Positions 49,085-51,375 of a stretch of 64,000 nucleotides of DNA are shown piece after piece. Under the pieces are notes generated by a model. That model ran no database searches. It worked only from the letters and a program-made list of their open reading frames with translations, and was not told where the DNA came from. Source of the stretch: an uncultured Alphaproteobacteria bacterium (GTDB lineage Bacteria; Pseudomonadota; Alphaproteobacteria; CAAHEQ01; UBA3637); NCBI GenBank assembly GCA_944392795.1, contig CALXXX010000019.1, forward strand, positions 15,916 to 79,915. The letters run 5' to 3'. Position 1 is the first letter of the stretch; the number at the start of each line of letters is the position of its first letter. The position numbers and the translations under genes were made by a program.

Positions 49085-49160
49085 GGGTGATTAGCTCAGT
49101 TGGTAGAGCAGCTGACTCTTAATCAGCGGGCCCAGAGTTCGAGTCTCTGATCACCCACCA
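49085..49160 (+). tRNA. tRNA-Lys (anticodon CUU)
   Basis: Cloverleaf: GGGTGAT / TAGCTCAGTTGGTAGAGCA / GCTGA-CTCTTAA-TCAGC / GGGCC / CAGAGTTCGAGTCTCTG / ATCACCC-A-CCA. Confidence 0.93.
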
Positions 49161-49341
49161 TTTTAAAAATAAGGTCTTTTAAACATCAAAAATGTAAGTA
49201 TGTTGAAAGACCTTTTTTCTATGAACTAATCCGAAACTGACGCAAAATTTTGTCTATACTCTTGAAACATTTTCTTGTGTTTGAAATTGCTTTTTTACAT
49301 TTTTGTAATATAATACTTCTTAATTAACATTAAAGGAAAAA

Positions 49342-50250
49342 ATGAGAGAATTAAGATTATTGTTAACAAGCAGCTGTAATTATAATTGTTTCTTTTGTCA
49401 TCATGAGGGATTACAAGAAAGGAAACAACGTCCTATTTTCGACGCTGAAGATTATACATATCTTTATAAAGCATTTAGAGATTTGTATTTATCTGATGAA
49501 ATTACTGCTACCGGTGGTGAGCCTCTTATTCGAAGTGATATTTTTGATATTTTAAAATCTTTAAAAGCAGCTCAGTCAAAAACAACATTGGTGACAAATG
49601 GATCTTTGTTAGGAAACTTTTATCAAGTTGGGAAATATGTAGACAGGATAAATATTTCTTTACATTCATTAAATTCTGATATTTACTCATCCATCGTTGC
49701 TTCTAATCCGGACGCTTTATCGAAAGTAATAAAAGGAATTCATAAAGTAGCTTCAAAATTTCCAAACGCTCAAATTCGCTTTAACACGACTGTTCTTAAA
49801 GGCGTAAATGATGACTCTGATAGCATTGGTTCTATTGTAGATTTTGCACAAGATGTTCATGCATCTGTAAAATTTATAGAACTCTATCCATCCTCAACAA
49901 CGGGTTTTGTTCCGTTGTCTGATGTTGAAGATAGATTAAAAGAGCTTCGTTTTAAAAAAAATCAAGAAAACGCACGTCAAACCATTTATTCAAGAGATAA
50001 TGCGATAACTGTTGCCGTCACAAGAATTTTCTGTGCTCACGCCATAAGAACTCAAGATCCAAGTGGATATTGTCGTGCGAATCAAGATTTATTTATTACT
50101 CCAGATGGTGGAATAAAAACTTGTATGAATACATCAGAAGAAGTTCCTATTTCTGAAGCAGTAAAAAGACGTGATTTAAAGAGAATTTCTTATCAATTTA
50201 TGTCAGCAATCAACCAAATGGGTAGGCATTGTTATCAAAGAAAGGATTAA
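49342..50250 (+). CDS. MoaA/viperin-like radical SAM protein (CxxxCxxC; GGEPL; NGSLL; GVNDD)
   Basis: CNYNCFFCHH cluster motif. SAM-binding TATGGEPLIR. VTNGSLL. VLKGVNDDS..I..FA......V.FIELYP and the C-terminal ..DLFITPDGGIKTC resemble MoaA (..RVSATGKLHLC..). The MoaA auxiliary CxxCx13C cluster is not intact. Markedly AT-rich. Confidence 0.75.
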   Translation: MRELRLLLTSSCNYNCFFCHHEGLQERKQRPIFDAEDYTYLYKAFRDLYLSDEITATGGEPLIRSDIFDILKSLKAAQSKTTLVTNGSLLGNFYQVGKYVDRINISLHSLNSDIYSSIVASNPDALSKVIKGIHKVASKFPNAQIRFNTTVLKGVNDDSDSIGSIVDFAQDVHASVKFIELYPSSTTGFVPLSDVEDRLKELRFKKNQENARQTIYSRDNAITVAVTRIFCAHAIRTQDPSGYCRANQDLFITPDGGIKTCMNTSEEVPISEAVKRRDLKRISYQFMSAINQMGRHCYQRKD

Positions 50251-50252
50251 AA

Positions 50253-50819
50253 ATGGCCAATCGTAATTTACTTTTAAGGGCTTTAAAAACATATAAAACA
50301 AATTATGAATCAGAGCAGGGTTTTATTCAAGAGATGATAGATTTCATAGAAAAAAATCCGAATTGCTTTGAACGTTCTAATTTATCAGGACATGTTAATG
50401 GGTCTGCTTGGGTTTTAAGCCCTGATGAAAAGAAAGTTTTATTAACACATCATAAAAAGCTTAATCGCTGGTTGCAGTTGGGTGGTCATTCGGATGGAGA
50501 AGACAATACTTGGAATGTAGCTCTTCGAGAAGCAACTGAAGAATCTGGAATTTCCAACATCCAATTTGTAATGAAAGAGATTTTTGATATTGATATTCAT
50601 ACTATTCCAGAAAATCCGAAAAAAAATGAGCCAGAACATAAACATTATGATGTACGTTTCCTATTAAAGGCTCCTACAGAGGAATTTGTGATGAGTGAGG
50701 AATCAAATTCTTTAAAGTGGGTCAGTGCATCAGAACTATCATCGATGGCTTCCAAAGGAGAAATATCTTTAGCTATGGTTCGTATGATGGATAAATGGTT
50801 AAATAGAAAAGAAAAATAA
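50253..50819 (+). CDS. NUDIX hydrolase
   Basis: Complete Nudix box GGHSDGEDNTWNVALREATEESGI (Gx5Ex7REUxEExGU). The ATG follows the radical-SAM stop by 2 nt, giving operon structure. Confidence 0.8.
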   Translation: MANRNLLLRALKTYKTNYESEQGFIQEMIDFIEKNPNCFERSNLSGHVNGSAWVLSPDEKKVLLTHHKKLNRWLQLGGHSDGEDNTWNVALREATEESGISNIQFVMKEIFDIDIHTIPENPKKNEPEHKHYDVRFLLKAPTEEFVMSEESNSLKWVSASELSSMASKGEISLAMVRMMDKWLNRKEK

Positions 50820-50867
50820 CATTTACTCTGCTCCATACTTTAAAATCAATTCTGCTAAATAGCTAAG

Positions 50868-50950
50868 CAAAAAAACTATGTTTTACATGAAATTGTGTAT
50901 AACAAAGCGATTGTAGATTCTTTTTTAAAAAAAACGGCGCTTATGATATT
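50868..50950 (+). other. about 80-nt degenerate duplicate of an internal ispH segment (matches ispH nt 51474-51560 at roughly 85%)
   Basis: Direct comparison: CTATGTTTTACATGAAATTGTGTATAACAAAGCGATTGTAGATTCTTTT... versus ispH CTATGTTTTACATGAAATTGTGCATAACAAAGTGATTATAGATTTTTTC... Confidence 0.6.
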
Positions 50951-51326
50951 GTTGGCTTTGATTTCTTGATGGGAAAAGGTTTTTATGAAATAGCTTAGAG
51001 CGCATTAACAGATTCTCTATTAACAAAATAGAGTTATGTTTTTCGATAGAGAAGATGAGATGCAACGTATTTAAGAATTATTAAAAAGATACATATACAC
51101 TGATACTTAGAAAATCTTACAGCTATTAGATTGGATTATTCAAAGAGATCATGTATGCACAATAGAAAATGGTTATGAGTTCATAAAAATATTATAGTCA
51201 TTATGATGGATTAGATGATTGTTATAAAGAGTTTGTTAAATTGAGTTTATTTTGTGCTTGACATTTGCTTGAAAACGGCGTAGTTCAAAGGAAAAGCCGT
51301 TTTATTGTGAATGCAAAGTCTATCGG

Positions 51327-51375
51327 TTCTTAATCAGCAGGTTCAGAGTTCATGTCTCTGAATACCCACCATTTT
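51327..51375 (+). repeat. direct repeat of the 3' half of tRNA-Lys (anticodon loop to CCA plus ATTTT), attR-like
   Basis: TCTTAATCAGCAGGTTCAGAGTTCATGTCTCTGAATACCCACCATTTT versus tRNA CTCTTAATCAGCGGGCCCAGAGTTCGAGTCTCTGATCACCCACCATTTT. Located 2.2 kb downstream of the intact tRNA-Lys and immediately upstream of ispH. Confidence 0.75.

Follow-up and report, generated by a model that had tools for sequence, protein, structure and literature searches.

The window analysed here, a 64,000 nt stretch of contig CALXXX010000019.1 (positions 15,916 to 79,915) from an uncultured alphaproteobacterium, contains an islet of approximately 2.2 kb between a tRNA-Lys(CUU) gene and ispH, the cargo of which is two co-directional genes encoding a radical S-adenosylmethionine (radical-SAM) enzyme and, after it, a NUDIX hydrolase. 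The favoured interpretation, to which a probability of about one half is attached, is that these genes form an operon for a nucleotide sugar-modifying enzyme and a pyrophosphohydrolase, making the islet a minimal nucleoside- or nucleotide-analogue cassette. The enzyme belongs to a family that is defined by a clear sequence signature and is, as far as could be found in the literature searched, apparently undescribed.

The left boundary of the islet is the tRNA-Lys gene itself (anticodon CTT; 49085-49160, forward strand), which is identified as intact by ARAGORN and matches Rfam with 71.9 bits. A repeat search revealed that its 3' half recurs in direct orientation in front of ispH (49117-49169 against 51328-51380; 53 nt, 83% identity). 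Within the core of this repeat, the putative attachment (att) sequence, 41 of 48 positions are identical between the left copy (49117-49164, forward strand) and the right copy (51328-51375, forward strand, the attR side), the latter being decayed and stopping 13 nt ahead of the GTG start codon of ispH (51389-52210, forward strand; Pfam LYTB, 267 bits), the housekeeping gene that forms the right boundary. Between the two copies lie the genes for the radical-SAM enzyme (302 aa; 49342-50250) and the NUDIX hydrolase (188 aa, counted from the ATG used by its orthologues; 50253-50819), both on the forward strand, with only 2 nt separating the TAA stop of the former from the ATG of the latter. At 31.2% GC, relative to 38.6% for the window, the islet has the minimum of any 2.2 kb stretch across the 64 kb, and the GC z-scores of its two genes among the 61 open reading frames (ORFs) are -2.6 and -2.2. 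A preliminary description of this DNA, made from the sequence alone, had recognised the tRNA gene with its repeat and the pair of tightly coupled, AT-rich genes, all of which is borne out by these results. It was also correct that no integrase is left: none is present among the islet's ORFs, and tblastn with a relative's integrase remnant as the query gave no match there.

That these repeats represent attL and attR, as had been proposed, is supported by the same junction in related genomes, for which contigs were chosen through a search for IspH homologues. Two of these (L099 and L100; 99% identity) represent the same species and contain the same islet. In the species represented by L094-L096, the IspH of which is 72% identical, the tRNA fragment is precisely the point from which the nucleotide sequence becomes syntenic with the window (L094:5919, equivalent to window position 51311). 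The fragment in front of ispH in L094 is a perfect 50 nt copy of the tRNA-Lys 3' half, matching the left copy in the window at 50 of 50 positions, and no intact tRNA-Lys is found near this junction. Upstream of it are a 217-aa N-terminal remnant of an integrase (Arm-DNA-bind_3; also in L095) and cargo unlike that of the window. In the more distant L097 (IspH 65% identical), a transketolase gene directly precedes ispH, and there is neither an insertion nor a tRNA fragment. The perfect tRNA fragment, the integrase remnant and the differing cargo in L094 imply that the tRNA-Lys/ispH junction is an integration hotspot, which is filled independently in different lineages. The interpretation of the islet as a small, horizontally acquired insert that has lost its integrase is therefore supported.

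The island in L094 (1467-5585; also in L095 and L096) encodes, besides the integrase remnant and a 65-aa ORF, an amidohydrolase, a radical-SAM/SPASM protein and one further radical-SAM protein, and may be a peptide-modification cassette. A 304-aa radical-SAM gene in this island was considered as a possible homologue of the enzyme in the window, and proved on comparison to be unrelated to it.

A feature of the islet overlooked in the preliminary description is a degraded stretch of ispH sequence, derived from the 5' part of the gene and located downstream of the NUDIX gene (50868-50945, forward strand; 66-78 nt), which corresponds to codons ~29-54 and is 83% identical to 51473-51550. On alignment, its nearest match is the window's own ispH rather than those of relatives. 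The presence of this fragment implies that the junction underwent at least one further rearrangement, for which a partial duplication and the imprecise excision of an island from a sibling strain are both conceivable origins.

The radical-SAM enzyme matches the Pfam Radical_SAM model (64 bits) and falls short of the threshold for Mob_synth_C (17 bits; cutoff 37.4). Three NCBIfam models for MoaA (TIGR02668, NF001199 and TIGR02666) give scores of 160, 148 and 126 bits, relative to cutoffs of 325, 231 and 284, with the archaeal model, moaA_archaeal, being the best match at 160 bits. With the NCBIfam viperin model, NF038283, the score is 70 of the 180 bits required, and only residues 8-158 align; likewise, the PADLOC models for prokaryotic viperins (pVips) match only the N-terminal core (residues 7-160), with scores of 72 and 61 bits. 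An AlphaFold2 model of the enzyme (mean predicted local distance difference test score, pLDDT, of 88.8) has its best match among PDB structures in MoaA (2FB2; template modelling score 0.74), followed by SuiB, viperin, DesII, BlsE and AbmM. When a profile of the family was compared with the sequences in the PDB, MoaA (1TV7) scored 99 bits, AbmM 64 and viperin 48. On both the sequence comparisons and the predicted fold, MoaA is thus clearly the closest relative. The likeness to viperin-class enzymes that had been remarked upon in the preliminary description holds for the radical-SAM core of residues 8-160 only.

An alignment of 42 family members, and a separate one including archaeal MoaA, reveal both what has been retained from MoaA and what has changed. 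The family signature consists of R5, C12xxxC16xxC19-H-x-E-G, C231, C244, D249, F251, C261 and C297. The cysteines of the CxxxCxxC radical-SAM cluster (C12, C16 and C19) are invariant, as is R5, the equivalent of R17 in MoaA, and the CNYNCFFCHxEG motif (CNYxCxFCHxEG across the family), GGEPL and NxSLH are common to the enzyme and archaeal MoaA. Relative to MoaA, the N-terminal ~13 residues are absent and the lysine ahead of TGGEPL is lost. At the auxiliary cluster site, the first and third cysteines are kept (C244 and C261), while the second cysteine of the MoaA CxxC is lost, the aligned residue being N, F, Y or K. An eight-residue insert brings a new conserved cysteine, C231, and a C-terminal GxxC (C297) stands in place of the REPYW of archaeal MoaA, such that four C-terminal cysteines (C231, C244, C261 and C297) are conserved in 33 of the 42 members; a Saccharibacteria subgroup appears to be without three of them. 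The position of MoaA R266 is occupied by an aspartate (D249) in 34 of the 42, and that of R268 by phenylalanine or tyrosine (F251) in 40 of the 42. The MoaA pattern, C-x-x-C-T-R, is retained by the genuine Thermoproteales MoaA sequences that were aligned with them.

In MoaA, the auxiliary cluster is ligated by three cysteines (CxxCx13C), leaving an open iron for N1 of GTP; the enzyme takes the 3'-H of GTP, R17 contacts the 3'-OH and N7 of this substrate, and three strictly conserved arginines, R17, R266 and R268, are indispensable (PMC9026282). With R266 and R268 replaced and the second CxxC cysteine lost, the window's enzyme is judged not to be a GTP 3',8-cyclase. It is interpreted instead as a twitch-type enzyme descended from an archaeal-type MoaA, with a remodelled substrate site and auxiliary cluster site. 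Hence the earlier view that the protein is MoaA-like without being MoaA, and that a role in cofactor biosynthesis lacks support, agrees with both the failed model cutoffs and the replaced residues. The accompanying statement that the second-cluster motif of MoaA is not intact is correct with regard to the CxxC cysteine, but the conservation of four cysteines suggests that the auxiliary cluster is remodelled rather than simply lost.

The family is small but widely dispersed. A search of 5.8 billion proteins identified approximately 18 clusters of homologues with 33-84% identity and a length of ~300 aa, none of which has a Pfam hit to Mob_synth_C; the next matches are archaeal MoaA proteins, at 26-35% identity. 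When 185,579 species genomes were scanned, further members came from Alphaproteobacteria and many Clostridia of the gut, from Woesearchaeota and from phyla of the Candidate Phyla Radiation (CPR), namely Moraniibacteriota, Peribacteria, Absconditabacteria and Saccharibacteria. In every one of the alphaproteobacterial loci with an intact enzyme, an orthologue of the NUDIX gene (60-80% identical) directly follows, with gene order and the 2 nt spacing being kept, and the housekeeping genes around the pair differ from one of these loci to the next. In five of eight alphaproteobacterial contexts, each elsewhere in the genome, the cassette is no more than 500 nt from a tRNA gene: tRNA-Lys-CTT in the window, Lys-TTT in L105, Thr-CGT in L005, Gly-CCC in L015 and Ala-GGC in L101. 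This proximity is far above that expected by chance in small genomes, and implies that the cassette has repeatedly inserted beside tRNA genes. No convincing att repeats could be found around the cassette in L105, L001, L014 or L015.

In L005, the 3' end of tRNA-Thr (CGCAAGCGGCA...) is present three times (3027-3056, 3218-3247 and 5861-5890), with a shared motif of 11-15 nt. Both genes of the cassette, together with one for a transpeptidase-like protein, are bracketed by these copies, which may be att remnants of a further cassette insertion, although they are suggestive only. Two tandem, near-palindromic 18 nt repeats (GTAGAATAGCTATTCTAA and GTGGAATAGTTATTCTAA) are located just upstream of the radical-SAM start in L001 (7951-7986), and are operator-like in appearance; the window has none. 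An origin of the cassette in phage was also considered and rejected: the best relatives on viral contigs are generic radical-SAM proteins with 25% identity, and the hits to PHROGs are generic only.

The second gene of the cassette encodes, as had been proposed, a canonical NUDIX hydrolase (Pfam PF00293; 36.4 bits relative to a cutoff of 21.1). The catalytic REx2EE helix (Nudix box REUxEExGU) is kept, with R/K92, E93, E96, E97, G99 and I100 found across an alignment of 24-26 orthologues, among which E93, E96, E97 and G99 are invariant; conservation does not extend to the first acidic residue of the Gx5Ex7 spacing. The AlphaFold2 model (pLDDT 95.3) matches the NUDIX fold, the best PDB match being the uncharacterised 3FCM, followed by generic ApnA and nucleoside triphosphate (NTP) pyrophosphohydrolases. 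Homologues are abundant, with 3481 at E <= 1e-5, including dozens of clusters that match over the full length at 47-87% identity.

Partnership with phosphohydrolases extends well beyond the Alphaproteobacteria. A Pfam scan was made of 140 operon-like neighbours of approximately 40 non-redundant family members, from which the 25 commonest families were listed. NUDIX domains were the most frequent (23), accompanied by CYTH (7) and HD (7) proteins and by P-loop nucleotide-kinase families (AAA_18, 7; AAA_17, 7; thymidylate kinase, 5; cytidylate kinase, 5; deoxynucleoside kinase, 4), along with four PfkB kinases. Neither families of the molybdenum cofactor pathway nor glycosyltransferases or sugar-1-phosphate nucleotidylyltransferases are among the 25 listed, and the genes immediately flanking the islet in the window have no relation to that cofactor pathway either. 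Many clostridial members carry a fused DegT/DnrJ-type aminotransferase, which makes a 714-aa protein, and a double-NUDIX protein comes next; in L017 the order is radical-SAM, DegT and a fusion of NUDIX with thymidylate kinase. The DegT partners resemble the NDP-sugar aminotransferases PseC, LegC and DesI, all of these matches being below the respective cutoffs. Other loci add HD, CYTH, a carbamoyltransferase or a GreA-like protein. The presence of three unrelated phosphohydrolase folds, as well as nucleotide kinases, beside the enzyme implies that its substrate or product would be a nucleoside polyphosphate, and the fused aminotransferase that the product would bear a sugar carbonyl.

In the Saccharibacteria and some others (L046, L047, L051-L053, L055, L006 and L022), the radical-SAM gene is followed by one for a conserved 175-aa protein. 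This has no match in Pfam or NCBIfam, and its sole hit is to a phage protein family of unknown function, phrog_6660.

Under the favoured interpretation, the first gene product would bind a nucleoside polyphosphate in a MoaA-like manner and abstract a hydrogen from the ribose, most likely the 3'-H. The change of the two arginines at R266 and R268 to aspartate and phenylalanine suggests that the base is not guanine, and cyclisation onto C8 of guanine would not be expected to occur. Rather, the C3' radical might be oxidised or dehydrated, generating a keto, deoxy or didehydro nucleotide. Twitch/SPASM radical-SAM dehydrogenases such as BtrN use a fully cysteine-ligated auxiliary [4Fe-4S] cluster as an electron acceptor, and the cysteine-rich auxiliary cluster of this family could be a comparable electron relay. 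The NUDIX hydrolase would strip pyrophosphate from the modified NTP, leaving a nucleoside monophosphate (NMP); this would both be the next step of the pathway and shield the polymerases of the host. The product would be an antimetabolite or an antiviral nucleoside or nucleotide analogue, and in the Clostridia the fused DegT domain could turn the keto intermediate into an amino-nucleotide.

A bolder version of this proposal, which has to be regarded as rather doubtful, holds that an offshoot of MoaA has founded an uncharacterised family that abstracts the ribose 3'-H from an NTP, has a fully cysteine-ligated auxiliary cluster and yields a 3'-keto or deoxy product, making it an anaerobic counterpart of Pur10 and AdgB. 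The DegT fusions might then produce chain-terminating amino-nucleotides in gut Clostridia, and the alphaproteobacterial pair might be a mobile antimetabolite or antiviral cassette in which NUDIX confers immunity.

Several observations weigh against the analogue-cassette interpretation, most of which concern the independence of the NUDIX gene. Its family is far larger than that of the enzyme (3481 homologues, relative to ~18 clusters), and at 80 metagenomic loci encoding orthologues with 41-65% identity, mostly from marine and soil samples, a radical-SAM gene was present at only one, 53 of the 80 having sufficient upstream room to reveal it. Close relatives attest to at least two losses of the radical-SAM gene, the NUDIX gene being retained each time. 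The closest orthologue (L101; 87% identity) stands alone, the radical-SAM gene upstream being reduced to its final ~35 nt (L101:5001-5052); in L105-L107 (82%), it lies behind a radical-SAM pseudogene with an in-frame loss of residues 15-180 (L105:4590-4996); and in L265 (75%), there is neither an enzyme gene nor a clear remnant upstream. The persistence of an intact NUDIX gene, at 75-87% identity, where its neighbour is deleted or broken implies that it has a function independent of the enzyme. Furthermore, the window cassette is without an aminotransferase, kinase or exporter, the DegT partners elsewhere in the family would fit an NDP-sugar substrate equally well, and in the literature searched, neither a specific account of a nucleotide system of the radical-SAM/NUDIX or MoaA-like kind nor any paper describing the family came to light. 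The dependence therefore seems to be one-sided, in that the distribution of the genes indicates that the enzyme depends on a hydrolase partner, while window-type NUDIX proteins do not depend on the enzyme. This qualifies the earlier suggestion of a two-gene module: across phyla, the radical-SAM family is nearly always beside a nucleotide phosphohydrolase, but the NUDIX protein is not dedicated to it. That the hydrolase is kept when the enzyme disappears is what would be expected of an immunity or resistance gene, and equally of one with a general sanitising role. If it were an immunity gene, this would explain why an orphan resistance gene persists after the decay of the producer gene.

One alternative is that the two genes are unlinked neighbours, with the NUDIX protein acting as a general housekeeping sanitiser and the radical-SAM enzyme modifying RNA, a peptide or a cofactor precursor. 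The abundance of NUDIX orthologues, mostly alone in marine and soil metagenomes, and their retention after loss of the enzyme would both be expected on this basis, as would the greater conservation of the hydrolase (80% identity to its counterpart in L001, relative to 65% for the enzyme). This is nevertheless considered unlikely: NUDIX subfamilies, HD and CYTH proteins recur as immediate partners across phyla alongside nucleotide kinases, the alphaproteobacterial loci keep the order and spacing of the pair, and the NUDIX-kinase and radical-SAM-DegT fusions tie the functions together. If the substrate were instead an NDP-hexose, modified by the radical-SAM enzyme, transaminated by DegT and hydrolysed by a NUDIX NDP-sugar hydrolase in a pathway resembling that of DesI and DesII, then the sub-threshold similarity of the DegT partners to PseC, LegC and DesI, the appearance of DesII and BlsE among the structural matches of the enzyme and that of NUDIX NDP-sugar hydrolases among the weaker fold matches would be accounted for. 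However, the 25 commonest neighbour families listed do not include the glycosyltransferases and sugar-1-phosphate nucleotidylyltransferases of such pathways, the recurrent partners being HD proteins and proteins like NMP or nucleoside kinases and CYTH triphosphatases, and the closest homologues by sequence use free nucleotides (GTP for MoaA, cytidine nucleotides for AbmM and CTP for viperin). An NDP-sugar pathway hence appears decidedly improbable.

An anti-phage system similar to viperin, in which a chain terminator of the 3'-deoxy-3',4'-didehydro-NTP (ddhNTP) type is made during infection and the NUDIX hydrolase limits self-toxicity, overlaps with the favoured interpretation in its chemistry. 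The scores of the core region against the pVip (72 and 61 bits) and NCBIfam viperin (70 bits) models, the place of viperin among the top structural matches and the mobile, patchy, low GC nature of the cassette all accord with this, and the kinase neighbours in relatives recall the pairing of pVips with kinases and of viperin with CMPK2. It is weakened by the failure to reach the viperin cutoff of 180 bits, with a match limited to residues 8-160, as well as by a C-terminal half that is MoaA-like and has conserved cysteines, which viperins lack. Furthermore, the flanking genes (FtsK, LolA, Lnt, IspH and Aas) are of a housekeeping nature rather than those of a defence island, no close relative was detected among the viral contigs searched, and known pVips, as reportedly set out in the 2021 pVip paper, need no hydrolase partner. 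Such a role is therefore not thought probable. Least likely, and by some distance from plausible, is that the enzyme is a genuine but divergent MoaA (GTP 3',8-cyclase) acting in molybdenum cofactor synthesis. MoaA provides the best sequence and fold matches, and the CNYNCFFCHxEG motif and the equivalent of R17 are common to the archaeal proteins. Yet all three MoaA models (160, 148 and 126 bits, with cutoffs of 325, 231 and 284) and Mob_synth_C are below threshold, the second CxxC cysteine is lost, R266 and R268 are replaced by aspartate and phenylalanine family-wide, molybdenum cofactor families are absent from the 25 commonest neighbour families listed, and the gene has become a pseudogene in close relatives.

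The rest of the islet offers few indications of how the cassette is expressed. An inverted repeat forming a terminator-like hairpin, with a T-run, lies just past the tRNA gene and is followed by the AT-rich leader of the radical-SAM gene (49164-49221, forward strand); scans of the islet for promoters and terminators performed no better than on shuffled sequence. No riboswitch in the leader was matched by Rfam, and an alignment of six leaders revealed no conservation. Downstream of the ispH fragment, the AT-rich segment at 50946-51327 is non-coding and probably decayed island DNA; across 50820-51327, the GC content is 28.9%, and the only ORFs of at least 50 aa are spurious. The islet is surrounded by housekeeping genes, those for FtsK, LolA and Lnt preceding it and those for IspH and an Aas-like fusion following it. 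Between Lnt and the tRNA-Lys gene is an orphan 415-aa ORF on the reverse strand (47730-48977), which has no Pfam match. Further low GC ORFs without Pfam matches are found at 2810-3544 and within 34196-36263 (31.6%, 33.3% and 34.3% GC). The first of these, which might also be a small insertion, adjoins tRNA-Met (3603-3679), the only other tRNA gene that ARAGORN detects in the window.

Nucleotide editing by radical-SAM enzymes is the source of a cofactor in the case of MoaA, of antiviral chain terminators in that of viperin and of antibiotics in that of AbmM. An additional family, spread over gut anaerobes, CPR bacteria and DPANN archaea and wired to nucleotide phosphohydrolases, kinases and aminotransferases, would probably catalyse reactions on nucleotides that are new, and might also supply new nucleoside analogues from human gut microbes. 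The pair in the window represents a directly testable two-gene system, and a partner gene that outlives the gene for its enzyme bears on the spread of resistance and immunity genes.

In its anatomy, the islet resembles integrative islands that target tRNA genes, with the complete tRNA on one side and its 3' part repeated on the other, a deviant GC content, and contents at the site that vary among relatives, one of which has an integrase remnant. It is unlike them in being only 2.2 kb in length, lacking an integrase and holding an internal ispH fragment. With MoaA, the enzyme has in common the R17 equivalent, the radical-SAM motif, GGEPL and the first and third cysteines of the auxiliary site, whereas the partners of the family are phosphohydrolases and kinases, not MoaC. 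Viperin and the pVips are, as is predicted here, radical-SAM enzymes acting on the ribose of an NTP, and are similarly found as small mobile modules, with kinase neighbours in relatives of the window's enzyme; residues ~8-160 can be aligned with them (48-72 bits). By contrast, the C-terminal half of the window's enzyme is not viperin-like and carries conserved cysteines, the family appears to need a hydrolase partner, and the context is not that of a defence island. AbmM, involved in albomycin production, is the second-best sequence match in the PDB (64 bits) and has the FCHNEG motif in common with the enzyme, the C-terminal region being different.

Parallels in pathway logic are found with two sets of genes, compared here by their published descriptions. 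In the 3'-amino-3'-deoxy nucleoside pathways encoded by adgB-E of Photorhabdus (ADG) and by pur10/4/7 (puromycin), the order of steps is 3'-oxidation of an NTP, a Nudix hydrolase, an aminotransferase and a phosphatase (PMC9239236). The logic of ribose oxidation at the level of the NTP, followed by a Nudix hydrolase and an aminotransferase acting on the keto product, would be shared, and the same partners, NUDIX and a fused or adjacent DegT, accompany relatives of the window's enzyme. However, oxidation by Pur10 and AdgB is the task of an NAD-dependent oxidoreductase rather than a radical-SAM enzyme, and the window cassette is without the aminotransferase, monophosphatase and transporter of these pathways. 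The thmA-C cluster for 4'-thiothymidine, also from Photorhabdus, combines a radical-SAM gene with a kinase and an NTPase that confers self-resistance (PMC12691670). Unlike the window cassette it includes a kinase, but it is likewise a minimal cluster of a radical-SAM enzyme and a nucleotide phosphohydrolase for self-resistance.

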